Below, in pieces: positions 3,648 through 48,565 of a stretch of DNA of 64,000 nucleotides (its first letter is position 1; every line of letters starts with the position of its first letter). The stretch is from Candidatus Cloacimonadales bacterium (GTDB lineage: Bacteria > Cloacimonadota > Cloacimonadia > Cloacimonadales > JAIOQZ01), in assembly GCA_963662655.2 (NCBI GenBank), contig CAXXTU010000002.1, forward strand, positions 736,001-800,000, written 5' to 3'. A program made the position numbers and the translations under genes. The notes under the pieces are model-generated. The model did no database searches. It was given only the letters and a program-made list of their open reading frames with translations, and was not told the DNA's origin.

Positions 3648-3775
3648 GTCATGGCATCTTTGCCCAATCATGTCACTCCACCGTGGATATAACATGTCCT
3701 CGAAGCTATCGAATGTACTGATAGGACATGTAACACCACGCCTGCGTGACATGATTGAACAAATCTGCTCATGAC
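3648..3775 (-). repeat. Structured hairpin element family 1, copy A
   Basis: Boxes GGCATCTT-GCCC / GTGGATATA / CTATCGAA / AACACCACG / GAAC-AATCTGCT shared with copies at 39446, 44631, 48438; intervening stems covary. Confidence 0.85.
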
Positions 3776-3785
3776 TATTGCCGTG

Positions 3786-6170
3786 TCAATCTGTTCGAAG
3801 GGAATCCACCGGTTTGATCCGCGAAACCTGAAGAATCCTGTACAGCATGGTTGCCACGGCGAAAACGACGATGACAGTGAACGGTATCGCGAAGTGGAGC
3901 CAGTTAATTGGGATACGGTAGTAGAACATCCCGATGAATTTACCTGAGAAATACCACGCTACGGGAATCGCGGGAAGTGCGGCGATCACAATCAGACCGA
4001 GGAAATCTTTGAGAAGTCGTATGGAGATATCGCTCGAAGTAGCTCCTATGACCTTGCGGATGCCGATTTCCCGCGTTCGCTGCTCGGTAATGAACACATT
4101 CAAGCCATAAAGGCCGATAAACGAAAGCAAGATCGATAAAAGCGCAAACCAGACGACGACATTCTTGATGTAGCTGAAGTAGCCGTATGAGCTCTCGATC
4201 ATGTCGGGAAGAAGATCGTACTCGAACGGGATGTCCGGGAATAACCGGGCGAAAGTCTCTTTCACATAATCAAACGTTTGCGCCCGACTCTCCGGAGCTA
4301 TCTTGATAAGAAGTGACTTACAGAATATAGCGTTCTGCCAGATTACCAGTGGCGATGCACCGCCTCCGGGGAGACTGTTCTCGAAGTCCTTTACGATCCC
4401 TATGATCGTACCGTTGAAGCGATGCAGGCGCAAGCTGTATCCAATGGGGTTTTCCAGATTCATCAGGGTAACGGCTCGTTCATTGAGGATAAAATCGTGT
4501 CCATCATCGGAAAGGTTATCGGATTGCAGGTAGTTCATCTCATTGAAATTTCTTCCGGCGATAAGGTCAAGGCCCAACGCGTCGATAATCCCATCGTCGG
4601 TCATCAGGAACTTGAAGTATAGATCCGTGTCACCCTCTTTACCTTCCCAGAATACAGGATTTCCAAACATAATCTGATAGGGAGAGTCCGAGACATGCGT
4701 CACAGCCAGCACCCCGGGATTGACCAGTAGCTTCTCGCGCAGTATTTCGTATTTGTCACCATACTGATGATTGAAGGCGATACTCAGCACCGCATCGGGA
4801 TTGAAGCCAGGGTCTTTGGCAAGCATGAAACGGAACTGCTTAACAATGATGAACGCGGTGGTCAGCAGCGTGATCGTTACGAAGAACTGGAACACGACAA
4901 GCGTTTTCCTGAGCAACTGCCTGGACGATCCGCTCGTGTGATAATACTTGGTCGAGACTGGATTGAATTCGGAGAGGTACATTGCCGGCAAGAATCCCGA
5001 GAGAAAGCTAACGGCGAGCACCAGCAGGGGGAGACTCAGCCAGAGGAGACGGTTTCCCCATTCAAGCTTGATCTCATCCCGCATCAACAGGTTGAAGCCC
5101 GGCAGCATGATTTCGACGAGAATGATTGAAATGACGATCGCGAGCGATACGATGATCAGCGCTTCGAGCATGAACTGCATCCAAAGCTGCGCACGGTTGG
5201 CTCCCACGATCTTGCGAATGCCCACTTCCCTGATTCGCGTAAATGCTCGCGCCATTGAGAGATTGAGGTAATTGATGCACGCGATACTGAGAATAACCAG
5301 CCCCGCTGCGCCGAAGATGAAAATGTAGATCAGGCTTTCCGATGGGGTTCCATCGGGTTTATGCAAGTGAATCTGTGAAAACTCCTGCAAGTGCAGCACT
5401 GCCCCGATTTCGTATTCGCGCGGACTGTATCGCTCGATCGCTTTTTCGATCTTGCTTTCGACCATATCCAACTCCTCGCCTTGATGCAGAAGTACATAGG
5501 CTTGAGTCTCGTAGGTCCATTTGCTCAGATTCTCTTTGCCTAGAACCTCCATCGGGAGGATGTAATCGAAGTCCAGGGACGAGTTGGACGGCATGTCATC
5601 GACAATAGCCCGAACCGTGAATTCCCCCTGAACAAGGCCCGAATTCAAGTCGTCGAACTCGACATGTATAACCTGTTCCATCGGATCGTTCTCACCGAAA
5701 AGCTTTTCGGCGCATGAGCGCGAGATGACAATGGAGCGGACATCCTCCAGCGCGCTTTCGGGATCGCCTCGCAGCACGGGGATATCGAAGATGCGGAAGA
5801 ATCCAGGCTCGGTGAGGGCTATGCTGCTCTCGTTGAAGCCTTGGCCTTTTACCCTGATTGTTACGTCATCGATGGAACGAAGCCTTGTGCCGTCTTCGAT
5901 CTCCGGGTATTCATCCACGATTATCGGTAAGATCGCGTACGGCGTGATGTGTCTCAGGTACATTTCTCCGCTAATCTCTACTCCAACCAGCAAACACGCG
6001 ATGCGATCGAGCTTCTCGTGGTGGTGGTCGAAAAGGAGGTGGCTCTGAATCCAGAGGACGAGAAGGATGCTCACCGCGATTCCGATTGACAGTCCGGCGA
6101 TGTTGATGAGCGTGAATCCCCGATGACGGAAGAGATTCCTGAAAGCGATTCTAAGAAAATTACGCAGCAT
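3786..6170 (-). CDS. ABC transporter permease, duplicated MacB/FtsX type
   Basis: RIAFRNLFRHRGFTLINIAGLSIG start; two REV/IGIRKI/VIGA FtsX motifs; 794 aa. Confidence 0.9.
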   Translation of the reverse strand: MLRNFLRIAFRNLFRHRGFTLINIAGLSIGIAVSILLVLWIQSHLLFDHHHEKLDRIACLLVGVEISGEMYLRHITPYAILPIIVDEYPEIEDGTRLRSIDDVTIRVKGQGFNESSIALTEPGFFRIFDIPVLRGDPESALEDVRSIVISRSCAEKLFGENDPMEQVIHVEFDDLNSGLVQGEFTVRAIVDDMPSNSSLDFDYILPMEVLGKENLSKWTYETQAYVLLHQGEELDMVESKIEKAIERYSPREYEIGAVLHLQEFSQIHLHKPDGTPSESLIYIFIFGAAGLVILSIACINYLNLSMARAFTRIREVGIRKIVGANRAQLWMQFMLEALIIVSLAIVISIILVEIMLPGFNLLMRDEIKLEWGNRLLWLSLPLLVLAVSFLSGFLPAMYLSEFNPVSTKYYHTSGSSRQLLRKTLVVFQFFVTITLLTTAFIIVKQFRFMLAKDPGFNPDAVLSIAFNHQYGDKYEILREKLLVNPGVLAVTHVSDSPYQIMFGNPVFWEGKEGDTDLYFKFLMTDDGIIDALGLDLIAGRNFNEMNYLQSDNLSDDGHDFILNERAVTLMNLENPIGYSLRLHRFNGTIIGIVKDFENSLPGGGASPLVIWQNAIFCKSLLIKIAPESRAQTFDYVKETFARLFPDIPFEYDLLPDMIESSYGYFSYIKNVVVWFALLSILLSFIGLYGLNVFITEQRTREIGIRKVIGATSSDISIRLLKDFLGLIVIAALPAIPVAWYFSGKFIGMFYYRIPINWLHFAIPFTVIVVFAVATMLYRILQVSRIKPVDSLRTD

Positions 6171-6270
6171 ACCATTCCCCCAAAACCTTGTTCATTAGTG
6201 AACGCACGATGATCACCAACGAACATTAAAACATTCGCATATCCCGTTAATTGTTGTAAAGAAATTATTA

Positions 6271-6286
6271 TGCAAGATTGGTGCCT
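6271..6286 (-). promoter_or_regulatory. Putative sigma-54 (-24/-12) promoter
   Basis: Minus strand AGGCACCAATCTTGCA = GG-N10-GC, about 100 nt upstream of the permease. Confidence 0.6.
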
Positions 6287-6413
6287 ATTGCTGATTTTAG
6301 TATATGAAAAAGAATAAAGAAATAGGTTGCCGATTTATTACCGAAAGCGTATTTTGACGGGTATCGATGATCAATACACGACACCGAAACCACCAGGGAA
6401 AAAGGAGCTGGAA

Positions 6414-7154
6414 ATGAGCGACCGGGAGTCAAAGATGTACGAGAAGATACTGGAATCCATTAACAAATATAACTGTCAGCTTGTTTGCGATTACGGGTGC
6501 GGCGACGGCGAGTTGCTCGATTACCTGAAGGACAAGAAACCCGATCTGGAGCTGTACGGGATCGATTATTTCTCGAAGTGGAAGGATGAGGGAGGGGCGG
6601 AGAACTATGTCAAGATCGATCGGGAAGGCGAATATTTCACGAAGCTTGCCGGTCTACGGATGTTCGACATGGTGGTCTCGACGCACGCCCTGCATCATTT
6701 TCAGTACCCGGTTAGCGAGCTGAGGACCATCGCCGGCATGATTCGCCCGGGTGGGTTGCTCGATCTGTACGACCACTGTTTCGATCACGGGTCGCAGCGG
6801 GGGTACGTGCGGTCGCTTTCCTCCCTGATCGGCGAGGCGACAAGCGCGCTACGCGGAATGTATCACCGCCATCACTATTCGCTGGAGGAAGCGGTGGATT
6901 TGCTGTCCGTAATATCTGGAGAGATGCTGGTTCATGAGGAGTTCAGGCTCGATGTCTCCGAAGAGGAGAGCGAGCAGTCCGCAAAGCGGAATCTCGAGCG
7001 CATCCAGGGTATGATTGACAAGATCACGCCGAAGTGGCCGGAATTCTGGCTCGATATCTTTCTGCCACTACTTGAGCTGGATTACAGGACCATCGAAAAA
7101 ACCGGTATGGACACCAGCTTGATGCTGCATATCATTGTACAGGTGAATGAATAG
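6414..7154 (+). CDS. Class I SAM-dependent methyltransferase
   Basis: DYGCGDG motif I, FDMVVSTHALHHF, IRPGG; AAGGAG RBS. Confidence 0.85.
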   Translation: MSDRESKMYEKILESINKYNCQLVCDYGCGDGELLDYLKDKKPDLELYGIDYFSKWKDEGGAENYVKIDREGEYFTKLAGLRMFDMVVSTHALHHFQYPVSELRTIAGMIRPGGLLDLYDHCFDHGSQRGYVRSLSSLIGEATSALRGMYHRHHYSLEEAVDLLSVISGEMLVHEEFRLDVSEEESEQSAKRNLERIQGMIDKITPKWPEFWLDIFLPLLELDYRTIEKTGMDTSLMLHIIVQVNE

Positions 7155-7171
7155 CTGATTGATTGGGGCCG

Positions 7172-8542
7172 TTAATTGTTCTCCAACCCCAACTGCTTCA
7201 TTTTCAAATAAATATGCTGGCGACTCAGGCCGGATATTCGCGCCGCCTCGGTGACGCTGTTGTCGGCGGTTTCCAGTAGCTTTTCGAAGAAGATGAGCTC
7301 GAACTCCGCCTTGGCTTCTTCGTAGTTCTCGGAGAATGACTGTGTGATCGAAGTCTTCTTCCCTTCCGTGAGGTAATCCGGGAGGTCGTCGGGGAGGATG
7401 TTTTTGTCGCTGCAAAGCGCAGCGGAATGCTCGATGACGTTCTGCAATTCCCGGATATTGCCTTCCCACGTTGCTTTCTTCAGCAGTTCGAGCGTATCCC
7501 GGGTGAGCTGATAGCCGGAAAGGCCATTCTCTTTCATGAAGAGATTCAGGAAATGCCGGGCGAGGAGCGGGATGTCTTCCACGCGCTCCCGCAATGGCGG
7601 AATGTTTATCTTGATGACGTTGAGCCGGTAATAGAGGTCCTTGCGGAACGTGCCGCGATTCATTTCATCTTCGAGCGTGCGGTTGGTGGCCGCGATGATG
7701 CGAACGTCAACCTTGATCTCCTGGTCGCTGCCGACTCTGCGGATGCTCTTTTCTTGCAGGACGCGCAGGAGCTTTACCTGGAAATTGGGCCCGGTTTCGC
7801 CGATCTCGTCCAGAAATAGCGTACCGTGATTCGCTTCCTCGAAGTACCCTTTCGCCTCTTTGTGGGCGTCGGTGAAAGCACCCTTGGTGTGGCCGAAGAG
7901 CAGGCTTTCAAGCAATGTCTCAGGAACGGCACCGCAATTCACTGCTACAAAAGGCTTTTCGCTGCGGTTACTGTTGTCGTGTATCATTCTGGCGATCATC
8001 TCTTTACCGGTACCGGTCTCACCCTCGAGCAGGATGGTCGAGTTCAGAACGGCAACCTTGTGAACAACTTCGAGCATTTTCTGGATTTCACGGCTGTTCC
8101 CGACGAAATCGCCACGGAGAAGGTTGGCGGAGAGCTTCATGCGGAGGCGCTTGTTTTCCTGCATGATGCTGTGGGAGTTGATGGCTTTATCGACTTGCAC
8201 GAGCAGGATTTCCAGGTCTAGAATCGGCTTCTCGATGAACTCGATCGCACCGGATTTCATTGCCTGAACGGCCATCTTGAGGGTCGCCTTGCCGCTCATG
8301 ACGAGAATGGGTATCTCCGGGTGTGCGTCTCGCAGCTTCTCCACGAACTCGAGGCCGTTAACCTGCGGCATAACCAGGTCGGAGACAATGCAGTCGAAGG
8401 CGTCATCTGCAAGAAGTCGGAACGCCTCTTCCGTCGAGCTGGTTGCAACGACATCGTAATTGACCTTGAGAACCCGTTCGCAAATCTCCAGAGATTCGCG
8501 TTCATCATCTACGACAAGCACTTTGGGGAGTTTCATATTCAT
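7172..8542 (-). CDS. Sigma-54-dependent response regulator (NtrC/AtoC family)
   Basis: REC domain, GETGTGKE Walker A, GAFTDA, RIIAATNR, GNIRELQN, Fis HTH. Confidence 0.95.
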   Translation of the reverse strand: MNMKLPKVLVVDDERESLEICERVLKVNYDVVATSSTEEAFRLLADDAFDCIVSDLVMPQVNGLEFVEKLRDAHPEIPILVMSGKATLKMAVQAMKSGAIEFIEKPILDLEILLVQVDKAINSHSIMQENKRLRMKLSANLLRGDFVGNSREIQKMLEVVHKVAVLNSTILLEGETGTGKEMIARMIHDNSNRSEKPFVAVNCGAVPETLLESLLFGHTKGAFTDAHKEAKGYFEEANHGTLFLDEIGETGPNFQVKLLRVLQEKSIRRVGSDQEIKVDVRIIAATNRTLEDEMNRGTFRKDLYYRLNVIKINIPPLRERVEDIPLLARHFLNLFMKENGLSGYQLTRDTLELLKKATWEGNIRELQNVIEHSAALCSDKNILPDDLPDYLTEGKKTSITQSFSENYEEAKAEFELIFFEKLLETADNSVTEAARISGLSRQHIYLKMKQLGLENN

Positions 8543-8610
8543 CCTTCAGTAAAACGATTTTCTTCAGTAAGGAAACAATTGAAATGGATATTTTGTCAAC
8601 AGAAGAAATC

Positions 8611-10168
8611 TCAGAGCTTGTAATCGAGGAACACGATGTGGAAGCCCAATTGTCGCTGGTCGGCGTCACGAAGGTAATCGAATTTGATCTTGATACTTGT
8701 CCACGACAGCTTTAACTTGATTGCGCCATCGAACGACGAATAGCTTCCGGCGTCCGAATCGATGCCCAGTTCCCAGCCTGCGTCCAGATCGAGCAAGCTC
8801 ATCTCATGGTGCAAGGCAAGGATTGTTCCGAAGAGGTAGATTTCGTCGGGGCTGTAGTAGTACCTTGAATCGTAGCGATACGATTTCGCGCTGAAGAATC
8901 CCCCGATCTCGATTTCCGGGAAGGAATACACCTCATTGCTGAACGATGCGCGGTTGGAGAATCCCCGATTGTCCCTCGTAACTACTGTGAGGCCGTAGGG
9001 AACATCCTCCGGATCGGCCTTCTGAAGCGTCTCGTCGTCCTTCACGAGATACCCGTCGAATGCGTTACGGAACGTCCAGCCGTTTTCCTCGTACGTCATA
9101 TCCAGGCTTACGTTTTCCCGACTCTTGTTCTCCCAGTAGTCGATGACCGAACTGTTGTAATATAGCTCGATCTCGAACGGCTCCGGGCTGTAATCGATGC
9201 CGAAATCCCAACCGGACCGCTCGCCTTGAACGAGGTTGTATTGGATTGCGCCATTCAAGGCCAGGTCGTATCCCGGTAGCAGCGACAGCTCCGCCTCCCA
9301 GAACTGGCTTGTTCGCCCCGATTTCTCGTCGATGTAGTCAACGCGGCTTTCGCGGTTGACCTGATCGTAGAGGTAGTTCGTTTGTACATATATATAGTCG
9401 CTAACGCGGCGGTCGATGAAAAAGAAGAAGCGCCGGTATCGGTAATTCCAGCGCGTCGTGCGATCTTCCGTGTAATTAACCGCGCTGTATACGTTCGAAC
9501 GCAGGAACCTGTTCAGGCTGCCTAACATAAGTAGCGATAGGATATCGGCGTCTGTTTGGAGCGCTTTTTCGTGGGCCCGGATCGCCGCGAAGGGACGATT
9601 GATCTCCACATTGATCTCTCCTAGTTTGCTCCACCATGTGCCCGAGTCGGGATTGCTTCCGATATGATTTTTCAGGAGACGGATTGCCTTGTAGGGCGAC
9701 CGGTACGCATCAACAAGCTGAAACAGAGATTTGAAGCTCTCATCGTCATAGTACGCCTGATAAGCCAGCGTGAAGTAGTACTCGGCTCTGTCGATGTTCC
9801 CGGCGAGTTGCTCGCAATCCCCCAGGCGCAGCAGGATTTCAGGTTTCCCGAAGTCGTAGTAAAGCTGGCGGTAGAGCTTTGCTGCCGTGGCGTACTCGGC
9901 ATTCCAGAAATAGTAGTCGGCGTGCTTGAGGCGGAGTTCGTAGGAGTGGGGGAAAGCGGAGACTGCTTTTTCAGCGATTTCTCTCGCCAGATCGAAGCGG
10001 CCTTCCAGCTCGCAGACTGATATCAGCTGATTGTAATAGGTGAGTAACGATGATTCTGCGGAGTGAAAAGGCGTCTCGGCGATTTTAAAACGTTGTATGC
10101 CCGAAAAGTGTCGTAATGCACACGAGTACGATTGTGCAGAGAGACAGTTTCAAGGCAAAGTTTCCCAT
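8611..10168 (-). pseudogene. TPR plus putative beta-barrel outer-membrane protein with a +1 frameshift after the signal peptide
   Basis: Signal peptide MGNFALKLSLCTIVLVCITTLFG stops at TAA 10085-10087; removing one base joins it to a frame open through to 8611 (TPR-like helices then beta-rich region). Confidence 0.7.
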
Positions 10169-10349
10169 TGTACGATATTCCTTAGTCATTTTCCGGTAGC
10201 AAGTAATGAGCTTACTGAATTTTCCGGAAAAAATGCTTTTTTTTAAAAATTTATCTAAAGATGCCCTTTCTGGCAACCGATAAGAAGATGAGACCTTTGA
10301 AAAGGACGTAGTATAAAGAGCCGATTCTGACTTCAACCCGGGAGGTTTT

Positions 10350-10826
10350 ATGACAATTCCCCGAGAGTTGAGTTTTCTGCGGAATCATGCTTCGCTCTCC
10401 CAAGAGCGGCAAGGTCAGACCAAAGCCGCTCGAAAGAAGATGGACAGGACAGAGCAGAAGACTTCAGACAGGGAAGTCAGGGATAATCGGATAACGAATG
10501 AATCAGAGAATAAGGCTTTGAAGGATTATGGCTCGGGAAGCGAATTCTCAGCAGAAATGGCGAACTCCAATTCGTTTCCTGACATTTTGCCCGAGAAGTC
10601 TGTTAACTTACGCGAAGCGGAAGGGGAAGATGACCACATCCTAGCACGCAATTCTTCCCCTTCGTCCTTTCCTCCGGAATCGGGAGATATCCAGATGTCC
10701 GGTTCTCGCGTAAGGATTCGCCAAAGTTTGTTCGGTTACGAAATCCAGGGAAAGGAACAAGCAATTCAAAAACTGAAGGATTCCGGAAACGCCAATCCAG
10801 AATCCAAAATCGATTTTGAGCGGTAG
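10350..10826 (+). CDS. Hypothetical hydrophilic protein
   Basis: GGGAGG RBS, 158-aa ORF followed by terminator. Confidence 0.55.
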   Translation: MTIPRELSFLRNHASLSQERQGQTKAARKKMDRTEQKTSDREVRDNRITNESENKALKDYGSGSEFSAEMANSNSFPDILPEKSVNLREAEGEDDHILARNSSPSSFPPESGDIQMSGSRVRIRQSLFGYEIQGKEQAIQKLKDSGNANPESKIDFER

Positions 10827-10854
10827 CGCTTCTATCAAGCGCTACCGTTTTTTT
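10821..10854 (+). terminator. Intrinsic terminator (3' half duplicated at 12535-12556)
   Basis: CGGTAGCGCTT-ctatc-AAGCGCTACCG plus T7. Confidence 0.8.
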
Positions 10855-10926
10855 ATGCACGTATGAAATTATTGGTTGACAGCTCTAAATAAGGGAATCA
10901 AATGTAAAAAAAACCAAGGTATAAAA

Positions 10927-11817: not shown

Positions 11818-12533
11818 CGATGTCAGAGTTTACGTTGAGAAGAACATCGGTTGTTTTCATCAGAAAAGGATTCTCAGCCTTGACAAACTGAAATTGAAGG
11901 ATGTATTGAAACGAAAAAACCCTTATTTGTTTCGAGCCAAGTCCATGCTAACTGCCGAACAGATAATAAAAGGATTGGTTGATGCTTATATTTCATCCAA
12001 CGAGGAAACGCTTTTCGGTGATTGGCTAGAAGGTTTGGCTATATTCATCAACGAGATCGTCTTCTCGGGATGGAAATCACTGGCGCAAGGAATTGATCTC
12101 GAATTCGATAAAGATGGTGTACGAAACATTATTGCAATAAAATCTGGCCCTAATTGGGGGTAACAGTTCGCAAATCAAGAAAATGAAATTAGATTTCGTA
12201 ACTGCCGCCAAAACACTGCGGACAAGTAATTCGAAGCTAATCGTAACGGCGATTAATGGTTGCTGCTATGGCAGAGACAATAAACCCGATAAAGGATCAT
12301 ACTATAAATATTGTGGGCAACGATTCTGGGAATACATTTCAGACAATCGCGAATTGTATATTGATATCATCGAGCCCTTAGGACACAAGGCAAAAGCCAA
12401 GAACGACGAATTCATCGAATCCTATTCACGTATGATAAACAAATTCACTTTAGAATTCGCTGGTGATTTCTGTGCTTCAGACGGATCGATTGACTGGGTG
12501 AGACTTGTTCGATTCAATTCCGCTGCTATATAA
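11798..12533 (+). pseudogene. Type II restriction endonuclease (PmeII-like), frameshifted
   Basis: KRKNPYLF, SSNEETLFGDWLE, GIDLEF...IKSGPNWG; extra G in G5 at 12156-12160 interrupts GPNWGNSSQIKKMK. Confidence 0.75.
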
Positions 12534-12572
12534 ATATCAAGCGCTACCGTTTTTTTTCTGAACATACATCCA

Positions 12573-26383: not shown

Positions 26384-26740
<357 letters not shown>

Positions 26741-39445: not shown

Positions 39446-39571
39446 AGTATGGCATCTTCGCCCAATCCGCCACTCCTACGTGGATATAGCACACCATCCT
39501 GACTATCGAACGTGAAAATATGGTGTGCAACACCACGTCTTCGTGGCGGATTGAACGAATCTGCTCATACT
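39446..39571 (-). repeat. Structured hairpin element family 1, copy B
   Basis: Same conserved boxes and spacing as copies A, C, D with compensatory stem changes. Confidence 0.85.
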
Positions 39572-39617: not shown

Positions 39618-39638
39618 GTGAGATTTATGGGGGGAGGA

Positions 39639-42017
39639 TTATTTGAGGTCGTTTACTTCGATTGGCATGAGGAATAGAATTCCGTTGTCCGACATCTCTT
39701 TGTAGCGCTCGGTGCGTTCGACCAATTGATCGATCTCTTCCGGCAACTGGTTCATCAAGCCGATCGAGCTCAGCATGTCCATGTCGGTGTGTATCGTCAT
39801 TCCTTCTTTGTGCTTGGGGAATTCGATGAGGTTGAGTTTCTTCACGTTCAGGCGGGTCATCATGTGTTCGAACGCGGTCTCCAGACCTCCTAGATCATCG
39901 ACGAGTCCGTTTTCGAGCGCTTGGCGCCCGGTCCATATCCTACCCTGTGCGATGGCGTGAACCTCTTCTTTGGTCATGCCTCTTCCTTCCGCGACGTGAC
40001 CGATGAATACATCGTAGAAATGTTCGATGGATTCATTGTATTTCTGCTTCTCCGAATCGGTCATACTTCGCATGAGAGAACCGATGTCGGCATGCTCGCC
40101 CCGGCGGATGGTTTCGTAGTTCACGTCGATCTTGCCGAGGAGTTCCTGGATGTTCGGGGCGATTCCCATGACGCCGATCGAACCGGTGATGGTCATTGGG
40201 TCCGCGATAATCTCGTCACCGTATACGGCGATGTAATAACCTCCGGAACCGGCGACAGCCCCGAATGAGAAGATCACCGGACGCCCGGTCTCCTTGAACA
40301 GCTTGATCTCGCGTGCGATGATGTCGGATGCCAGCGCCGAGCCGCCACCGCTGTTGACGCGGACGATCATGCCGTCGATCATAGGATTCTTGCGCGCGTC
40401 CCGAATCGCCTTGGCCATGGAGGTGGAGCCGATGCTCTTGCCGGGCTGGCCTTCGCCGGAGTGGATATCGCCAATCGCGTAGATCATGGCGATGTTCTTC
40501 GATGCGTCCTGCGCCCATTCGATCGGCATGGGATCGCTGTAATAGGTAGGCATGAACATGGCGTTTTTGCCGAGGGTCTCAAGGATCTGATCTTCGTAGA
40601 TCAAGCCGTCGATCAAGCCGAGTTCGAGCGCTTCGTCGGCGCGGTACGGACCTTCGTCGATGATGGTGCGTACGTCTTGTGTCAGTTTGTCGGCTCTTCC
40701 TTCCTCGATCATCGCGACGAATTCGTCGAACATTCCGTCCAGAACATGGGTGAGAGCCACACGCTCGGCTTCGGTCATGTGGTTTTCGGAGAAGATGTTT
40801 CCCGCAGTCTTGTATTCGTGGCTCTGGAAGTTGACGACTTCCACGCCAAGCTTCTCGAGAAGGTCGTGTACGTAAGGCATCGAGATCGCCAGACCCTTCA
40901 ATTCCACATCGCCAACCGGATTCATGTAGATTCGATCGGCGATTGACGCTGCGAAGACGTACTGCGAGTTGGGGATTGAATCCAGGTAGAACACGATTTC
41001 CTTGCCCGTCGCCTTGAAGCTTTGGAATTCCTTGTGAAGCTCGTAGTAGTTCGCGAAGTTCCCCTGAAGGTTGCTGCTGCGAATCAGGATGCCGTCGATG
41101 CGATCGTCCTTCTTGAGCTTGCGGATCTTGTCGATCATGCTGAGCAACCTGATTTGACCCTCGTTCTGGAAACGGATAAAGCCGAATTCGGAATATTTCT
41201 CACGTTCGACAATCTCTCCGCTCATCTTCCAGTCGTAGTATTTCTTCTTGTGGAACATGACGCACGGGGAGCGGAATTGCTTGTCGGAGATGTGGATAAA
41301 CATCTCGCCGTTGGAGATCTTGTTGTCGTCGTTCAGGTAGTTGACGCTACCGATTTGGGATTTATCGGCGGAGAAGGCGATGCTCAGGGCGAATGTTTCG
41401 TCTTCGGTCTCGTAGGACGCGCCCAGGTAGAGTCCGTTGATCGGCTCGACCTGGATTCCGTAGATGGGATCGCCCCACTCGTCGTCGGTGTATTCGATAT
41501 CGCCGGTGAGTGTAACGCGGTCGATCAGAGGACGAATCCCCAGCCCTGCCCGGTAAACGTTCTCGTCGGAGTCATTGAGTATTTGAGCCGTACCACCCAC
41601 GGATACCCAATCGATGGGGCGGTAGAGCATGGAGAATCCAACCGATCCGTGAGCGAAATGGTCGTCAATCCAGTCCCAATGCGTTCCCAGGTAGAAATTG
41701 TTGAACAGCTCGGAAGCGGACGCCAGGCGGTGGTAGTTCGTCTTCTCGCTTCTGCGATAGGAGTAGCCAAGATTGTCCGTATTGAAGAACAACGTATAAT
41801 CCCTGACGAAATCTTCGTCGTCGTATGAAGCCTGATAGCCGAAACCGCCGGCTCTTCCATAAGCCAGTCCGGCCGGATTGACACGGGTAGCGTGTATGCC
41901 ATCGGTGGTGGCCACGGAGAAGTACTTCGCGCTAATCTGCTCCCAGTTAACTTCCGTAGCTCCAAGACTGATGGCAGCCCCCAGTACGATCACAAGAATG
42001 ATAATCATTTTACTCAT
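39639..42017 (-). CDS. sppA: Signal peptide peptidase SppA (S49) with N-terminal beta-rich extension
   Basis: EYKTAG, RVNSGGGSALASD, AGSGGYY, TITGSIGV, AQGRIWTGRQALENGLVDDLGG. Confidence 0.88.
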   Translation of the reverse strand: MSKMIIILVIVLGAAISLGATEVNWEQISAKYFSVATTDGIHATRVNPAGLAYGRAGGFGYQASYDDEDFVRDYTLFFNTDNLGYSYRRSEKTNYHRLASASELFNNFYLGTHWDWIDDHFAHGSVGFSMLYRPIDWVSVGGTAQILNDSDENVYRAGLGIRPLIDRVTLTGDIEYTDDEWGDPIYGIQVEPINGLYLGASYETEDETFALSIAFSADKSQIGSVNYLNDDNKISNGEMFIHISDKQFRSPCVMFHKKKYYDWKMSGEIVEREKYSEFGFIRFQNEGQIRLLSMIDKIRKLKKDDRIDGILIRSSNLQGNFANYYELHKEFQSFKATGKEIVFYLDSIPNSQYVFAASIADRIYMNPVGDVELKGLAISMPYVHDLLEKLGVEVVNFQSHEYKTAGNIFSENHMTEAERVALTHVLDGMFDEFVAMIEEGRADKLTQDVRTIIDEGPYRADEALELGLIDGLIYEDQILETLGKNAMFMPTYYSDPMPIEWAQDASKNIAMIYAIGDIHSGEGQPGKSIGSTSMAKAIRDARKNPMIDGMIVRVNSGGGSALASDIIAREIKLFKETGRPVIFSFGAVAGSGGYYIAVYGDEIIADPMTITGSIGVMGIAPNIQELLGKIDVNYETIRRGEHADIGSLMRSMTDSEKQKYNESIEHFYDVFIGHVAEGRGMTKEEVHAIAQGRIWTGRQALENGLVDDLGGLETAFEHMMTRLNVKKLNLIEFPKHKEGMTIHTDMDMLSSIGLMNQLPEEIDQLVERTERYKEMSDNGILFLMPIEVNDLK

Positions 42018-42392
42018 AAATCCTCCTTACTATTATATAAGAAATCACAGTAATCAATTCAAAAGTGAACGTCTTCCCCAGCTTATTCACTGTCATGGTA
42101 CAGCAATACACCTTGTATTGCGGGTGTCAAGATTTTTTTTCAGGTCTGCGATTGGTTTGGTTGTGATGTTTTTGATTATTGTGCTTGCTGTGGATGAGAA
42201 CTCCAGCAGGAGTGGAATATCTACAAAATTTATATATCATTGTATCACGCTGTTATTATGTTAGTTAGGTCAGGCAAAAATAATGTAAGTGAATAAAAAG
42301 TCTCAAAAAACATTGACATGGGGGCAGAAGAAGCTATTCTTTATTTTCGTAACTTTAAGATATTGTAAGCATGCAAACGGATGGGGTCACGA

Positions 42393-43268
42393 ATGGAAGA
42401 AAAAACGACTATGAATCTAGATGAATTGATTCAGAAGGTCAATCAATCTGAAATAGCCTCCATTCGCAATTCAATCCTTGAAATCCTCCGTGTCGTAACC
42501 GACCCCCAAACCAGCGCCAAGCAACTAACAGAGTTGATCGAGCGCGATCCTCCACTATCCGCAAGAATATTGCGACGAGCAAACTCCGTCTTCTACGGTT
42601 CAACGCGAAAGATATCCGAGATCCGGCAGGCGATCGTTCGCATCGGTTTTGATGTTGTGAAAGAACTGACCCTGACGCAGAAGGTGTGCGAGCTCTTCGA
42701 GTATGGGACGAAGCAAGATGGATTTTCCCGTATGGAGCTCTGGAAAAACAGCGTAGCCGTTGCGATCTGCGCAAAGACGATCTATCGTCAGGAGTTCGGT
42801 CAGAAGGGCGAGGAGGCTTACGCTGCCGGAATTCTGCACAATATCGGTCTTGTCGTGGAAGACCAGTTCATGCACGAGAAGTTTCTTGAGGTCGTCGATG
42901 TGAAGTCTATGATGAAAGACAACTTTCTGCATGCTGAAAGCTCCGTGTTCGGCATGAACCACGCTGAAATTGGCGGAGCGCTTGCTGAAAGCTGGAACCT
43001 GCCGCTGGAACTCGTCTGCGCCATACGGTTCCATCATGCGCCTTTCAAAGCGGAGAATGGATTGGGGCAGATCGTTATGGCGCTCTATCTGGCCGACTAC
43101 CTTTGCCAGTCCAACGGTATCGGTTTCTGCGATACGCCGTACGGAAACCGGCTGATGTTCCGTCGGTGCCTGAGCCATCTCGATATTAAGGACAAAGCTA
43201 CAGATTTCATCGTCCAGGATGTGGTTGCCGAGATAAAGAAGATGGAAAAGGCAGGATGGTTCGGATGA
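42393..43268 (+). CDS. HDOD domain protein
   Basis: IERDPPLSARILRRANS, AGILHNIG, HAEIGGALAESWNLP, IRFHH. Confidence 0.9.
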   Translation: MEEKTTMNLDELIQKVNQSEIASIRNSILEILRVVTDPQTSAKQLTELIERDPPLSARILRRANSVFYGSTRKISEIRQAIVRIGFDVVKELTLTQKVCELFEYGTKQDGFSRMELWKNSVAVAICAKTIYRQEFGQKGEEAYAAGILHNIGLVVEDQFMHEKFLEVVDVKSMMKDNFLHAESSVFGMNHAEIGGALAESWNLPLELVCAIRFHHAPFKAENGLGQIVMALYLADYLCQSNGIGFCDTPYGNRLMFRRCLSHLDIKDKATDFIVQDVVAEIKKMEKAGWFG

Positions 43269-44617
43269 AGCGAAAGGCGATACGCAAGGGTAATGAACGG
43301 ATAATCAATCGCTTGCAGGAACAAGTGGAAGAGCTTGAGATCAAGCTGAAACATACACAAAACGATTTTGATCTGACCAAACAAGATTTCGAAGCCACGC
43401 AGGAGCAATATTTCGAGACGCTTTTACAAATCCAGAAGCAAGAGCAGGAGCAGAAGCGACTTCACAGCGTTTTACGCCACTCACAGCGAATGGAGGCGGT
43501 TGGTTTGCTTGCAGGCGGGATCGCCCACGATTTCAATAACCTGCTGACAGTATTCCAGGTTACGATCGAGATCATGATGAATCACGCTGATCGATCCGAC
43601 CCACTCTTCAAGCATGTGGACCAGCTCAATCGAGCTGTTGGAAGAGCTTCCGCTTTGACAAACCAATTGCTGGTATTCAGCCGGAAGCAGGTTCTCCAGC
43701 CGAGGGTGATGAACATCAACCACATCGTAAAAGAAGTTAGCGAGATGCTCAGGAGGCTCATCGGTGAAAATATCGAGGTCGATATGTTCCTCGAAGAGGA
43801 TTTGGGGAATGTCAAGGCCGATCCCGGTCAGATCGAGCAGGTTTTGCTCAACCTGATCATCAATGCGCGCGACGCGATGCCGAACGGCGGTAAATTGACC
43901 ATCGAGACCTGCAATATCGAGTTTGACGACGTATATCTGAATTCGCATCCAGATGTAAACGAGGGATCGCATGTGATGCTGGCCGTGTCCGATAGCGGTG
44001 TCGGCATGGACAAGATCACCCAGGAGAAGATTTTCGATCCGTTCTTCACCACGAAAGATAAAGAGAGTTTCTCGGGGCTGGGACTTGCGATGGTCTGGGG
44101 GATTGTCCGGCAATCCGATGGGCAGATATGGGTTTACAGCGAGCCGAACCTCGGCACGACCTTCAAGATATACCTGCCGCTTGTGGATGGCGAGGCGCAG
44201 CCGCTGGATCAGTATCATTTCCAGCCTCTGGATATCCGTGGAAGCGAAACGATCCTCGTGGTCGAGGACGAGGAGGACGTGAGACAGCTGATCTCGGAAG
44301 CTCTTTACAATCAGGGGTATCGTGTGATCGAGGCCTCGGACGGTACGGAAGGTTACGAAAAGATGATCGAGCACAAGAACGAGATCGATATGGTTGTTAC
44401 GGATCTGATCATGCCTCATCTCAGCGGGAAGATGATGGCTGCGAAGATTCTAGAGAAATTGCCACAGACAAAGATTCTATTCATGTCCGGATACACCGAC
44501 GATATGATCGCCAACAACGGCATCCTCATTGAGGGAACCCATTTTATACAAAAACCTTTCAAGCTCCGTGATTTGCTTCATCGCGTAAAGGCCATCATCG
44601 AGGGGAGCGAGAAATAG
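43265..44617 (+). CDS. Cytoplasmic hybrid histidine kinase (HisKA-HATPase-REC, CckA-like)
   Basis: [34 protein letters not shown]-terminal REC. Confidence 0.92.
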   Translation: MKRKAIRKGNERIINRLQEQVEELEIKLKHTQNDFDLTKQDFEATQEQYFETLLQIQKQEQEQKRLHSVLRHSQRMEAVGLLAGGIAHDFNNLLTVFQVTIEIMMNHADRSDPLFKHVDQLNRAVGRASALTNQLLVFSRKQVLQPRVMNINHIVKEVSEMLRRLIGENIEVDMFLEEDLGNVKADPGQIEQVLLNLIINARDAMPNGGKLTIETCNIEFDDVYLNSHPDVNEGSHVMLAVSDSGVGMDKITQEKIFDPFFTTKDKESFSGLGLAMVWGIVRQSDGQIWVYSEPNLGTTFKIYLPLVDGEAQPLDQYHFQPLDIRGSETILVVEDEEDVRQLISEALYNQGYRVIEASDGTEGYEKMIEHKNEIDMVVTDLIMPHLSGKMMAAKILEKLPQTKILFMSGYTDDMIANNGILIEGTHFIQKPFKLRDLLHRVKAIIEGSEK

Positions 44618-44630
44618 CAATCTGCTTACC

Positions 44631-44753
44631 GTCGCGGCATCTTCGCCCGATCTCCCTTTAAAAGTGGATATACCACATCATAGGACTATCGAACGCAATA
44701 ATATGATGTGGAACACCACGTTTAAAGGGAGATCGAACGAATCTGCTCACGAC
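44631..44753 (-). repeat. Structured hairpin element family 1, copy C
   Basis: Same conserved boxes; begins 13 nt after the kinase stop codon. Confidence 0.85.
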
Positions 44754-44829
44754 TCTCGATTATAGTAATCGCAAGAACTCCCTGAGATTTCCATTGACGC
44801 GCTCGCCGTCCCGGTGAAGATTGCCATCA

Positions 44830-44905
44830 AGAATCAGGGGTGCTCGTAGCGGCTGAGATTAGACCCTAAGAACCTGATCCGGGTAATTCCGGCGTAGGGA
44901 GTATG
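44830..44905 (+). promoter_or_regulatory. TPP riboswitch
   Basis: GGGGTGC...GCTGAGA...ACCC...ACCTGATCCGGGTAATTCCGGCGTAGGGA upstream of thiamine genes. Confidence 0.93.
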
Positions 44906-44983
44906 CTACATATTGTACGATCGTACTAAAATTTCTCCCCCAACGATCAACCGACTCACGGGCAACCAACAAAGGGGGATAAA

Positions 44984-45760
44984 ATGGAACAACTTGTTTC
45001 AACAGCAATTCTGGAAACCTATTTCAAGAAACTGCGCGATTCGCTCAACGTGGATGCCGCCATCGTGGGCGGGGGACCTTCCGGACTGGTTTGCGCGGAG
45101 ACGCTTGCCGGAATGGGCAAGAAGGTCGCGCTCTTCGAGAAGAAGCTCGCGCCCGGCGGAGGCATGTGGGGCGGAGCGATGCTCTTCAACCAGATCGTGG
45201 TGCAGAAGGAAGCAATTCACATTCTCGATGAGTATGGAATCACCCACGAGCATTTTGAAGGAGACTACTATACCTGCGACTCCGTGGAAGCGACCGCCGC
45301 GCTGATCTACCGCGCGAAGAAGGCCGGTGTGACGATATTCAACGGCGTCGCCATCGAGGACGTGGTGTTTCTCAACGAGAAAGTCAGCGGACTGGTGATC
45401 AATTGGACGCCCGTCATGCACATGGGTATGCACGTGGATCCGATGGTCGTGATGGCGAAAACGGTGCTCGACGGAACCGGACATCCATGTGAGATCACGC
45501 AGGTCGTGGCCAACAAGAACGGCATCAAGCTCGATACGCCGACCGGCGATGTAGCCGGCGAGCGGTCGCTGGCAGTGGGCGAGGGCGAGAAAGCGACCGT
45601 TGAGAACACGCGCGAGATTTTCCCGGGACTGTTCGTGAGCGGCATGGCTGCCAACGGCGTTCATGGCGCGTTCCGCATGGGCCCGATCTTCGGAGGCATG
45701 CTGCTCTCCGGCAAGAAAGCGGCGAAGATCATGGCGGAATCGATTGACGGACAGTCATGA
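44984..45760 (+). CDS. thi4: Thi4-family sulfide-dependent thiazole synthase
   Basis: IVGGGPSGL, GGGMWGG, HVDP, DGTGH, RMGPIFGGMLLSG. Confidence 0.92.
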   Translation: MEQLVSTAILETYFKKLRDSLNVDAAIVGGGPSGLVCAETLAGMGKKVALFEKKLAPGGGMWGGAMLFNQIVVQKEAIHILDEYGITHEHFEGDYYTCDSVEATAALIYRAKKAGVTIFNGVAIEDVVFLNEKVSGLVINWTPVMHMGMHVDPMVVMAKTVLDGTGHPCEITQVVANKNGIKLDTPTGDVAGERSLAVGEGEKATVENTREIFPGLFVSGMAANGVHGAFRMGPIFGGMLLSGKKAAKIMAESIDGQS

Positions 45761-46371
45761 AAGATTTCGGACTGTACGCCATCATGACATCGCCCCGCGC
45801 GGGGCACCGGAGATTTGCCGAAATCTGCGTGGAGGAAGGGGTTTGCATCCTGCAACTGCGCGAGAAGAATCTGCCTGACGGGCAACTCGTCGCCATTGCG
45901 AACGACATCCGCGCCATAACGAAGGGAACCGGCACGAGCTTCGTCGTCAACGACCGTGCCGATATCGCTGCCAGGTGCCATGCGGATGGCCTCCACCTGG
46001 GGCAGAGCGACATGGACATCGAGAAAGCGCGCGATATCTTCGACGGGATTATTGGGCTTTCCACGCACTCGATCCGGCAGGCGAAAGACGCGCTGGAGAA
46101 GCAGCCGGACTACATCGGCTTCGGGCCTGTGTACGCCACGCCAACCAAGGCGATCCCCGATCCGGTTGTCGGAACGGAGCTGCTTGCGGAAGTCGCGCGA
46201 TTCGCGAATATACCGGTCGTGGCGATTGGCGGGATTTTCCCGGAAAACCTCCCGGAAATTCTTCGGACCGGAGCGCGGAACGTTGCGCTGGTTCGCTTCC
46301 TCATGGAGGTTGAAGACCCGCGTGAACGCATCCGCTTCTTGCAGAAAACCATTCAAAATTCACAGGAGTAA
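45757..46371 (+). CDS. thiE: Thiamine-phosphate synthase
   Basis: QLREK, VNDRADIA, GLHLGQSD, IGLSTHS, GPVYATPTK, VAIGGI. Confidence 0.93.
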   Translation: MKDFGLYAIMTSPRAGHRRFAEICVEEGVCILQLREKNLPDGQLVAIANDIRAITKGTGTSFVVNDRADIAARCHADGLHLGQSDMDIEKARDIFDGIIGLSTHSIRQAKDALEKQPDYIGFGPVYATPTKAIPDPVVGTELLAEVARFANIPVVAIGGIFPENLPEILRTGARNVALVRFLMEVEDPRERIRFLQKTIQNSQE

Positions 46372-46375
46372 TACT

Positions 46376-47668
46376 ATGACACAAATAGAAAGCGCAAAAC
46401 AGGGAATTATCACGGAGGAAATGCGCCAGGTTGCCGCCGACGAGATGCTCGAAGCCGAGTACATTCGCCAGGGGCTGGCGGACGGAACCATCGTGATCCC
46501 GCACAATATCAACCATAAATTCCCGGCCCGAGGCATCGGCAAGGGACTTAAGACCAAGACGAACGCGAACATCGGCACCTCGGCTGACCACTGCAACCTT
46601 AAGGAAGAGATCGACAAGCTGCACATCGCCATCAAGCACGGCGTCGACAGTGTCATGGACCTCTCGACTGCCGGGAAGCTCGATTTCGCGCTCAAGACGA
46701 TGCTCAACGAATCCAGCGTGATGGTGGGAACCGTGCCGATCTACTCGGTGGTCTCCAAGCTCGCGCAAGACGGCAAGGACATCCTCTCGATGACCTCCGA
46801 CATGTTTTTCAAAGAGATCGAGCTGCAAGCGAAGTTCGGCGTCGATTTCATCACGGTTCACTGCGGGATCACGCGCCGCTCTATATCGTTCTTCGAAAAC
46901 GATCCCCGCTTGCTGGGCGTGGTGAGTCGCGGCGGTTCGCTTCTCAAGCGATGGATGATGTACCACGATCTCGAAAACCCCATCTTCGAGGAATTCGACA
47001 GGCTCTTGGACATCTGCCGCAAGTACGATGTCACGCTCAGCCTCGGCGACGGTTTTCGTCCCGGTGCGCAGGCGGATGCGACCGACCGTGGTCAGATCGC
47101 GGAATTGCTTGTGCTGGGTGAACTGGTCGACCGCGCGCGGGAAGCAGGCGTACAGGCAATGGTGGAAGGACCGGGGCATGTTCCCCTCAACGAGATCGTG
47201 ACCAACGTTCAGATTCAGAAGAAGCTCTGCAACAACGCGCCCTTCTACGTACTCGGTCCGCTTACGACGGATATCGCACCGGGCTACGACCACATCACGA
47301 GCGCCATCGGCGGCGCGATTGCGGCGGCAGCGGGAGTGGATTTCCTCTGCTATGTCACCCCGTCCGAGCACCTCTGTCTCCCCACGGAAGACGACGTTCG
47401 CAAAGGCGTTATCGCTGCCCGTCTCGCGGGGCACAGCGGCGACATCGCGAAGGGCATTCGCGGCGCGATCGAGAAGGACCACATCGTCTCCAAGGCTCGC
47501 AGGGAATTCGATTGGGAAACCATCTACAAGTATTCCCTGGATCCGGAGCTCGCGCGCGACCGCAAGGAGAATTCCGAGAGCGGGGGAGAAGACCATTGCT
47601 CGATGTGCGGAGAACTTTGTGCGGTAAAGACCGATCGTAAGTCGGCGGAGGAAATCGCGAAGAAATGA
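46376..47668 (+). CDS. thiC: Phosphomethylpyrimidine synthase
   Basis: MTQIESAKQGIITEEM start with AGGAG RBS; TNANIGTS, MDLST, GVVSRGG, VEGPGH, CSMCGELC. Confidence 0.95.
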   Translation: MTQIESAKQGIITEEMRQVAADEMLEAEYIRQGLADGTIVIPHNINHKFPARGIGKGLKTKTNANIGTSADHCNLKEEIDKLHIAIKHGVDSVMDLSTAGKLDFALKTMLNESSVMVGTVPIYSVVSKLAQDGKDILSMTSDMFFKEIELQAKFGVDFITVHCGITRRSISFFENDPRLLGVVSRGGSLLKRWMMYHDLENPIFEEFDRLLDICRKYDVTLSLGDGFRPGAQADATDRGQIAELLVLGELVDRAREAGVQAMVEGPGHVPLNEIVTNVQIQKKLCNNAPFYVLGPLTTDIAPGYDHITSAIGGAIAAAAGVDFLCYVTPSEHLCLPTEDDVRKGVIAARLAGHSGDIAKGIRGAIEKDHIVSKARREFDWETIYKYSLDPELARDRKENSESGGEDHCSMCGELCAVKTDRKSAEEIAKK

Positions 47669-48411
47669 AGCAGCCCTTCGTACTCTCCATCGCGGCAAGC
47701 GATAGCTCGGGAGGAGCCGGAATCCAGCAGGACATGCGCACGGCAATCGATTTCAACTGCTGGCTCCTGAACGCCGTAACCGGTGTGACCGTTCAGGATT
47801 TCAAGGGATTGTACCGCGTCGAACATGTGTCGACGGAGATCATTCGCTTCCAGATCGAGAGGGCCTTGAGCGCTTTCGACGTGAAGGCCGTGAAGATCGG
47901 GGCGGTTTGCGACAAAGAGGCGATCCCCGTCATTGCAAACGCGCTACGGGGAGTATCGCAGGTGATTCTCGATCCGGTATTCTCGCCAACCAAAGGTGAA
48001 GCGTTTCTCGGTGAAAACCTCCGGGAATTGTATGAACCTTTACTTGAGAAAGCGAGACTTATCACGCCGAATCGTAACGAGTTGGAAACCATTTCCGGCT
48101 CTCCGGTCGCAACGTACGACGATGCTGTGGAAGCCGCGTACGCCTTGCAGAAGAAGTTTGGTTGCGGCATCCTGATCAAATGCGGTCATTTCACAGAGGA
48201 GCCCTTGCGGGATATCCTGATCGATGCCGGTAGGGAGTACCATTTCGCCAGGAAGAAGAAGAACTGGAAGTACTCGCACGGCACCGGATGTATGCTTTCC
48301 ACAGCCATCGCTGCCTGCGTTGCGTGGGGTATCAATATGCCGGAGGCTGTCAAAAAAGCTTCCGATTACCTTGAAAAGAAATACGATGTATTGAATGAGA
48401 TGTTTGCCTGA
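47665..48411 (+). CDS. thiD: Hydroxymethylpyrimidine/phosphomethylpyrimidine kinase
   Basis: SIAASDSSGGAGIQQD, ILDPV, ITPNRNE, HGTGCMLSTAIA. Confidence 0.9.
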   Translation: MKQPFVLSIAASDSSGGAGIQQDMRTAIDFNCWLLNAVTGVTVQDFKGLYRVEHVSTEIIRFQIERALSAFDVKAVKIGAVCDKEAIPVIANALRGVSQVILDPVFSPTKGEAFLGENLRELYEPLLEKARLITPNRNELETISGSPVATYDDAVEAAYALQKKFGCGILIKCGHFTEEPLRDILIDAGREYHFARKKKNWKYSHGTGCMLSTAIAACVAWGINMPEAVKKASDYLEKKYDVLNEMFA

Positions 48412-48437
48412 ATTAACTCGGGAAGGCAGCATTCTAA

Positions 48438-48565
48438 GTGCGGGAGCAGATTCGTTCGATCTCCTTTTTCAGCGTGGTGTTCCACATCGTTTTTTTAAGT
48501 TCGATAGTCCCGACGATGTGGTATATCCACGTTGAAAAAGGAGATCGGGCGAAGATGCCTCGCGC
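48438..48565 (+). repeat. Structured hairpin element family 1, copy D (inverted relative to A-C)
   Basis: GAGCAGATTCGTTC...CGTGGTGTT...TTCGATAG...TATATCCACG...GGGCGAAGATGCC. Confidence 0.85.

Follow-up and report, generated by a model that had tools for sequence, protein, structure and literature searches.

Strand-specific hairpin elements of a Cloacimonadales genome, their likeness to REP and attC sites and their homologues in IS1182-type MITEs

Four imperfect hairpins dispersed over one stretch of a Cloacimonadales chromosome raise the question of what kind of element they represent, and whether it is the DNA itself or an RNA copy that folds. A first-pass annotation of this stretch (64,000 nucleotides, here called the window) had described them as a four-copy dispersed family. 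Its coordinates and strands were all correct (Table 1), and the boxes, variable stems, bulged A and T, tandem G.A pairs and T.G wobbles were seen as it had stated, together with the compensatory TTTG/CAAA change in copy A. When copies A-D were folded as DNA (8 strands), the strand that it had named gave z values of -8.9 to -10.0 and was 2.5-5.5 kcal/mol better than the opposite strand. The family is real, but the number four is not: the genome to which the window belongs (G000) holds about 145 of these gene-less hairpin elements, spread over the chromosome.

Table 1. Hairpin copies of the window and parts of copy D
Feature	Position	Strand	Remarks
Copy A, whole hairpin	3648..3775	-	located and folded
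Copy B, whole hairpin	39446..39571	-	S49 peptidase gene and alpha/beta hydrolase gene on either side, both -
Copy C, whole hairpin	44631..44753	-	antisense to both flanking genes
Copy D, whole hairpin	48438..48565	+	between convergent thiD and PAS kinase gene
Copy D outer box, 5' arm	48445..48461	+	carries a bulged A, a stem of 3 bp, tandem G.A and a stem that has two T.G wobbles
Copy D inner box, 5' arm	48473..48485	+	5-bp stem, T-rich internal loop, stem
Copy D loop motif, loop class A	48500..48507	+	CG[AG]TAG
Copy D inner box, 3' arm	48518..48531	+	bulged T included
Copy D outer box, 3' arm	48543..48558	+	

Size, fold and loops of the family

Both outer boxes gave an anchor in 138 of the 144 candidates in G000, the other 6 being partial; beyond these lay one ancestral-type copy and one or two more divergent copies. 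An arm-profile search returned 333 matches (E<=5) versus 2 in the reversed genome, so that the family cannot be due to chance. No two copies were identical, the top pairwise identity being 97%, and present-day movement is therefore not demonstrated; for 10 of 132 copies, the copy most alike in sequence lay within 20 kb (1.6 expected), which we count as a sign of mobility. Across the order, 17 of 151 genomes carry the hairpin, at copy numbers from 1 to about 145, with 40-145 copies per genome in genus g1 and none in the two genomes of its sister genus g2. Scans of metagenome contigs, plasmids and phages gave no match; in viral contigs, exact matches numbered 0, 28, 3 and 0 per scan, none of them a full element. 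The hairpin had been assigned to no named family, and Rfam indeed yielded no match above the gathering score, only sub-threshold miRNA models; searches of the open-licence literature produced nothing on it, which does not establish its absence from print.

The conserved part of the architecture is a pair of distorted boxes spaced by about 2.5 helical turns; the stems and the terminal loop are free. In an alignment of 42 copies from four species, 24 of 37 pairs showed two-sided change and 96% of cells were paired, a level reached by none of 500 shuffles, with slid controls at 30-47%; 28 distant homologues likewise showed covariation, at 23 of 36 pairs. The expected strand folded better than its complement, as RNA for 137 of 138 copies and as DNA for 131 of 138. 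Covariation in both sets and strand-specific folding thus support the early proposal of selection on one folded strand. The mismatches and bulges of the boxes were kept across the 42-copy set. Some copies of genome G006 have Watson-Crick pairs in place of the tandem G.A. Of 150 opposed mismatches counted in middle stems of equal length, 91 were A.G. G.A and T.G pairs stabilise RNA too. Orthologous copies retained the fold in place between species; such upkeep is not demanded by mobility alone.

Loop length ranged from 4 to 285 nt. The loop TTCGATAG, first taken to be invariant, is so within the window only: CG[AG]TAG occurs in 43 of the 114 canonical copies and also in the genus's three other species, and since the motif is missing from the remaining 71, the data do not support its proposed role as a nick site for the family in general. 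The base after TGTT may be A, T, C or G among canonical copies, and logos of the outer ends revealed no conserved tetranucleotide and no AAC/GTT core. Stem changes come in blocks, similar stems exchange loops, and the inner box was also found with its two arms exchanged. Among smaller hairpins within the elements, GNA loops capped 14 of 33 distinct triloop hairpins of at least 5 bp, a restricted count that was picked after the unrestricted one and drawn from copies that are not independent; the unrestricted small-hairpin count did not favour GNA (37 of 383 triloops, with 90 of the complementary type). None of five tetraloops was GNRA or UNCG. GNA mini-hairpins are described in PMC13037366 as much more stable in DNA. 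Both the G.A mismatches and the GNA triloops suggest that the folded molecule is DNA.

Orientation, insertion sites and the search for a partner enzyme

The foldable strand belonged to the leading-strand template for 97 of 133 copies of contig C2 (p 1e-7), and still did so in 38 of the 55 copies in convergent-gene gaps (p 0.006); between co-directional genes, 24 copies were sense and 44 antisense. The foldable strand tracks replication, not transcription. The same rule fitted all 11 copies found within 0.8 Mb in genome G001 and 20 of 22 loci in relatives, but only 34 of 52 loci when orientation was judged from local skew in family f12 and other genera of family f1.

At six syntenic gene pairs, a copy was present in G000 and absent from G001. 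The filled sites were longer than the empty ones by about one hairpin length in four of the six cases, the comparison being made at 74% protein identity, a divergence at which exact insertion junctions are beyond resolution. Comparison of contigs of one sample met only other copies and no empty site. In genus g1 the flanks contained no recurrent 4-8-bp duplication near the element ends, a shared word of at least 10 nt in 8 of 202 copies versus 3.4 in controls, and IS1182-like end motifs (either end) in 0-5 of 202. These copies also showed no preference for a site beside a hairpin.

A co-occurring HUH/Y1 transposase, tyrosine recombinase or RT gene had been suggested as a partner, and the searches turned up no partner of the HUH, integron-integrase or RT kind. 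G000 had no match to Y1 transposase (PF01797), integron integrase, resolvase, Rep_trans or IS110; PF02486 (Rep_trans) gave 0/4, and PF04986 and PF14319 (Y2/Zn_Tnp_IS91) matched neither this genome nor any control genome. Five of its six tyrosine recombinases were tested, none reaching the TIGR02249 cut-off, and the sixth is a 121-aa fragment; those of relatives were judged by eye only. The only RT found in G000 is interrupted and of defence type, and none was found in G001. Among relatives, 0 of 15 Y1 loci, which were flanked by other repeats, and 0 of 10 IS110 loci held the hairpin, and no Y1, IS110, RT, GIY-YIG, DUF559 or recombinase locus ended in it. Searches on the GIY-YIG, GxxExxY, DUF559 and resolvase families led to no link, a XerD-like gene was set aside when its flanking copy proved not to be kept beside it in relatives, and ISL3 beside three copies, located in A-runs, looks incidental. 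No gene family of G000 was recurrently flanked by hairpin copies.

Homologues in IS1182-type MITEs and likeness to REP and attC

Shorter, AT-rich homologues of the hairpin occur in the second family, f12, where they form the inner part of an IS1182-type MITE of about 250 bp with terminal repeats and duplications of 11-50 bp. Among 40 non-rRNA copies, an IS1182-like left end was found in 27 and a right end in 28, and a duplication of at least 11 bp in 16 (control 0.5%), with none in the other 24. The ends gave short matches to those of autonomous IS1182 in f12 genomes, 9 of 12 of which have DUF772, and all three transposases tested, including both f12 proteins, passed the IS1182 model (NCBIfam NF033551). 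The f12 MITEs often adjoin a terminator-like hairpin, which is duplicated, in agreement with an element that enters hairpins and whose target duplication is set by structure. IS1182 is carried by genomes G002 and G003; G000 and G001 gave no DUF772 match, and no IS1182 transposase was found in G000. The first-pass view that the hairpins do not reflect recent copying of a MITE was right for G000, where identity does not exceed 97% and terminal repeats and duplications are absent, but the family as a whole is tied to a MITE through f12, whose homologues lie within IS1182-type MITEs.

A decayed f12-type MITE copy also forms an intervening sequence in the 23S rRNA gene, antisense to the rRNA. In five g22 genomes this stretch measures 211-256 nt versus 21 nt in G000 and is closed by a long stem, at a position that we take to be helix 45, a known site of intervening sequences. 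The closing stem is a likeness to 23S rRNA intervening sequences in general, and the decayed antisense MITE, in which no open frame was found, is a difference; the MITE is the likely origin of the insert.

REP, REPIN and BIME sequences (RAYT/TnpA-REP or IS200-type Y1) occur in dozens to hundreds of intergenic copies, and a REP unit is a 20-40-nt hairpin behind a tetranucleotide. The hairpin family resembles them in copy number, in its intergenic sites and its excess where genes converge, in forming inverted pairs and mosaics that include other small repeats, in ragged duplication-free ends and in local spread. In contrast to REP, the element is 80-400 nt long, single and built on two distorted boxes, and it pairs arm to arm with no tetranucleotide foot and short palindrome on each arm; moreover, G000 has no Y1 gene, and the Y1 genes of relatives stand among other repeats. 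With attC, as characterised in PMC5371416, the family shares an imperfect one-strand hairpin read by shape, with extrahelical bases and a variable terminal structure (the one-strand fold, the extrahelical bases and the variable terminal structure were all found in the hairpin), and an orientation rule, the reactive strand in sedentary integrons lying mostly on the leading-strand template. Unlike attC, the hairpins are single and dispersed among ordinary genes, not in cassette arrays, they have a GTT-like word in only 43 of 114 copies in place of the conserved AAC/GTT core, and no integron integrase was found in G000. The family is neither attC nor RAYT-associated REP. To IS1182 elements and their MITEs (IS1272/TnSha1, NF033551) it is linked by the f12 homologues with ends that match autonomous IS1182, and the genus g1 copies differ in having neither terminal repeats nor duplications. 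PMC4923244 reports hairpin targeting for the IS1182 family and, for IS1272, deletions rather than duplications.

Explanations weighed

We assign a probability of about one half to the reading that the family is a non-autonomous element working as a folded single DNA strand in a REP- or attC-like manner, with a link of descent to an IS1182-type MITE. Between the two roles first offered, folded single-stranded DNA is favoured over structured RNA by the replichore bias, the antisense position in the rRNA gene and the GNA triloops. A trans-acting, structure-reading enzyme would bind the two boxes on an extruded or fork-exposed strand, and, by analogy with REP/REPIN and IS200-type elements, might cut near the hairpin foot and paste a single-stranded copy elsewhere; copies would mostly stay in the orientation that exposes the reactive strand least. 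In f12 the hairpin would ride as a passenger between IS1182 ends, which genus g1 lacks, and the MITE may have either generated the hairpin or captured it. To our knowledge, the classes of folded single-stranded DNA sites are few (attC, REP, IS200/IS605 ends), and for each of them the enzyme is known. The present family offers hundreds of natural variants in two bacterial families; its structural consensus is clear while its partner is not known, and it thus provides a defined substrate for seeking a new enzyme that reads single-stranded DNA. It also ties a MITE of DDE type to a hairpin repeat that lacks ends. A bolder version, in which a hairpin that had left an IS1182-type MITE turned into an independent mobile or recombination site without ends, read as folded single-stranded DNA by an enzyme from a family not yet tied to such sites, with the two-fold symmetric inner box as exchange point and the copies helping to reshuffle gene order across the genus, we consider doubtful; the exchange-point reading cites arm-swapped boxes, swapped loops, an insert at a box and tail-to-tail pairs.

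The copies might instead be eroded MITEs, spread in longer form by an IS1182 DDE transposase, whose ends and duplications decayed and whose hairpin was kept through inter-copy conversion and arm-to-arm templated repair. The f12 MITEs, the ancestral-type copy without ends and the two orphan IS1182-like ends that G000 keeps, the presence of IS1182 in G002 and G003, the block-wise stem changes and the loop swaps between like stems all speak for this reading. We nevertheless consider it unlikely: ends and duplications have left no trace in 202 copies of the genus, among them near-identical short forms of the IS1182-bearing G002 and G003, filled and empty sites mostly differ by about a hairpin length, no strand-specific hairpin lay between the ends of any of 54 autonomous IS1182 loci, and templated repair would remove the conserved mismatches and bulges, which persist. 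Were it correct, the family would be a neat example of a known phenomenon. Still less probable is a multi-copy structured RNA, whether as a transcript hairpin for protein binding or processing or as a SINE-like RNA copied back at the fork. Motifs common in RNA (tandem G.A, T.G wobbles, a bulged A) are all present in the hairpin, and the nearly uniform strand advantage in RNA folding, the fold kept at orthologous sites and the excess in convergent gaps (57 of 138 copies versus 191 of 914 background gaps) would suit such a role, but the transcribed strand is not preferred, the rRNA copy is antisense, GNRA and UNCG caps and an Rfam match are lacking, and neither G000 nor G001 offers a suitable RT.

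We also think it quite improbable that the hairpin is a host-adopted site, that is, a replichore-oriented cruciform or single strand to which a host protein binds (one of replication restart, a topoisomerase or one of the nucleoid) or a recombination site that reshuffles operons. The replichore bias and the fold kept in place between species agree with this idea, as do the eight close pairs, all inverted with 3' ends facing and 25-70 nt apart, the arm-swapped inner boxes, and the G000 copies at 29 of 128 synteny breaks versus 9 of 323 kept neighbours. However, 99 of the 128 breaks have no copy, the excess is not significant among convergent pairs only (18/44 vs 3/16, p 0.14), homologous recombination can be seeded by any repeat, and the patchy occurrence in the order, including the absence from g2 and the wide range of copy number, argues against a host function.

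Some neighbourhoods of individual copies may be recorded here. One copy sits between umuD-like and umuC-like genes, which we also count among the signs of mobility. The MacB/FtsX permease gene at 3786-6170 (-) has copy A 10 nt beyond its stop, and a bidirectional terminator-like hairpin (3612-3630) adjoins that copy. Copy C is flanked by a kinase/response-regulator gene and by the TPP riboswitch at 44826-44918, which belongs to the thi4-thiC-thiD genes. At locus L102 of G003, a copy lies 3' of thiD on the same strand, as copy D does in G000, and a 6-bp block in its middle stem is altered on both arms.

Copies, fold and covariation

The four copies reported by the first-pass annotation in the window, with their boxes and paired variable stems, were all found in the sequence as claimed. 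Rfam matches in the window were limited to the tmRNA and a TPP riboswitch, with sub-threshold miRNA models covering two of the hairpin copies. The window corresponds to C2:736001-800000 of the source genome (G000). A four-copy profile, run against G000, gave 193 matches that merged into 137 loci; arm profiles added seven more, with two matches in a reversed-genome control. Both outer boxes were anchored in 138 of these 144 candidates, which with partial copies, one ancestral-type copy and one or two divergent copies make a total of about 145. Nearest-neighbour identity between copies reached 97%, with a median of 82%. In three other species of the genus (G001, G002 and G003), an 11-letter box pattern matched 43, 39 and 51 times, part of these by chance, against 0-2 for a control pattern.

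The element is a single long imperfect hairpin with a variable outer stem and an outer box (in order, a bulged A, three pairs, a tandem G.A and a stem with two T.G wobbles). A variable middle stem separates this from the inner box, where a T-rich internal loop containing a bulged T lies between a five-pair stem and another stem; a free loop follows. The inner box was canonical in 114 of 138 G000 copies; an arm-swapped version was also present, as were short forms capped with a C-GAA-G loop. Loops of the 114 were 4 to 285 nt long and fell into at least four classes, different classes being carried on near-identical stems; CG[AG]TAG, the motif of the loop earlier described as invariant, was found in only 43 of them. 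The claimed covariation held in 42 copies from four species, with two-sided change in 24 of 37 named pairs and 96% of cells pairing, the kind of figures that related copies inflate. None of 500 shuffles equalled the observed value and slid controls paired at 30-47%; the middle stem was excluded from the 37 pairs because it aligned poorly.

Replication orientation and the foldable strand

The GC skew of G000 points to an origin at about 2.65 Mb and a terminus at about 0.80 Mb, and a dif-like site lies at the skew maximum, so the window is at the replication terminus. On contig C2, 97 of the 133 copies have the foldable strand as leading-strand template. By gene context, assigned with a simple ORF caller, this was the case for 38/55 convergent and 11/13 divergent copies and, between co-directional genes, for 15/24 sense and 33/41 antisense copies. 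All 11 copies found in the 0.8 of 3.9 Mb of G001 that was covered followed the same rule, as did 20 of 22 loci in relatives by local skew, with weaker agreement among distant homologues (34/52).

Of 150 opposed mismatches, 91 were A.G. When distinct hairpins with five or more pairs were counted in 199 element segments, triloops were GNA in 14 of 33 and tetraloops GNRA or UNCG in 0 of 5; the GNA preference was not seen in an earlier, unrestricted small-hairpin count. GNA mini-hairpins are far more stable as DNA, according to passages of PMC13037366, and in sedentary integrons the reactive attC strand is held on the leading-strand template, limiting excision (passages of PMC5371416). From these sequence patterns we infer that the working form of the element is probably a folded DNA strand.

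Relatives, mobility and placement

Large genome searches, in which 22-25 candidates were scored per genome so that presence counts are lower bounds, found the element in at least 4 (model R1) and at least 17 (model R3) of 151 genomes of the order, in at least 9 of 151 genomes of the phylum (model R2) and in 12 of 12 genomes of family f12 (model R3). In f12 the element is AT-rich; it shares the outer box, keeps one half of the inner box and is preceded by a small T/A hairpin. Covariation was seen at 23 of 36 pairs (28 copies), and in f12 the hairpin sits within a unit of ~250 bp. Among 40 non-rRNA f12 copies, an IS1182-like left end was present in 27, a right end in 28 and an 11-50 bp duplication in 16, the duplicated piece often being a terminator-like hairpin. 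In genera g3 and g4, each feature occurred in only one of seven copies. IS1182, a family for which hairpin targeting has been reported (passages of PMC4923244), was found in 9 of 12 f12 genomes and in G002, G003 and G006; searches of G000 and G001 did not find it. The hairpin lay between the IS ends at 0 of 54 IS1182 loci and the right-hand parts of f12 MITEs are of several types, so the hairpin may as well have been captured by IS ends as have descended from a single IS. A 21-nt stretch of 23S rRNA is widened to 211-256 nt in five g22 genomes by a decayed MITE copy antisense to the rRNA, which suggests that a MITE inserting into a hairpin gave rise to this intervening sequence.

Between G001 (0.8 Mb) and G000, 451 neighbouring orthologue pairs included 128 breaks, at a median protein identity of 74%; gene-order shuffling is heavy in the genus. 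A G000 copy was present at 29 of 128 breaks and, where the pair was kept, at 9 of 323; for gaps measuring 130 nt or more the counts were 21/94 and 4/91. The excess was not significant for convergent pairs alone. Six kept pairs hold a copy in G000 but lack one in G001, and their junctions have diverged beyond reading. Similarity between close copies stops raggedly, 2-15 nt beyond the outer stem, and comparison of their ends revealed no recurrent duplication. Ten of 132 copies had their most similar copy no more than 20 kb away, against an expectation of 1.6 and a maximum of 9 over 2000 permutations, and all 8 close pairs were inverted with 3' ends facing. In three apparently orthologous copy pairs both arms have changed and the fold is retained, the change in one of them being a 6-bp block. 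The co-occurring partner enzyme suggested earlier (HUH/Y1, tyrosine recombinase or reverse transcriptase) did not appear in our G000 searches; IS91-type models matched neither G000 nor any control genome.

We favour, at a probability of about one half, a non-autonomous element acting as a folded single DNA strand, REP- or attC-like and linked by descent to an IS1182-type MITE. Its working would be closest to REP- or attC-type folded-ssDNA elements, although the window's form qualifies as neither. The f12 relatives are IS1182-type MITEs; the window's form does not qualify as one of these either. An eroded IS1182-type MITE appears a doubtful reading. A multi-copy structured RNA seems improbable, and we regard as similarly improbable a host-adopted chromosomal site, which would fit the replication orientation and the fold kept in orthologous pairs. 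No published description was found in the open-licence literature searched, which does not imply absence from print; the passages of PMC10969869 consulted mention neither IS1182 nor this lineage.

Neighbouring genes and repeats

Features and their locations (C2, contig of G000)
Feature	Location	Strand	Remark
tmRNA	window 26386-26740	-	Rfam
TPP riboswitch	window 44826-44918	+	Rfam; precedes thi4-thiC-thiD
Dif-like site	window 60580-60611	-	<=3 mismatches to a dif pattern
Copy between umuD-like and umuC-like genes	C2:834286-836503		Partial copy behind umuC-like; names by sequence inspection
Defence-type reverse transcriptase gene (L184)	C2:981050-982610		Drt3b-like, below cut-off; stop codon interrupts
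Sole ancestral-type copy (L492)	C2:1883620-1883740	antisense	Small T/A and main hairpins, no terminal repeats; between two genes of hydrogenase-like operon
Orphan IS1182-like left ends, hairpin and T-run	C2:2611622; C2:1265141		No transposase
Acido-Lenti-1 (G002)	L400:1432-1477		Rfam, above gathering score; immediately upstream of copy
23S rRNA intervening sequences	L349-L353		Genomes G049, G057, G031, G041, G026

The XerD-like protein encoded in the window has its nearest relatives in Cloacimonadales. A 137-aa IS200-like Y1 gene occupies the same place near xerC in G003 (L168) and G001 (L169) and is absent from G000. In G000 a Mu-like prophage gene set is repeated three to four times in near-identical form, and ISL3-like copies number 11-12. 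In G002 and G003, hairpin copies often lie in mosaics with several small repeat families (L126, L234/L239, L256, L261, L268, L272), one of which flanks an IS200-like gene in L173; others are a purine/pyrimidine palindrome and heptamer arrays. Some mosaics are tandem-duplicated whole. Nine of 20 heptamer matches in G000 lie within 400 nt of a hairpin copy.
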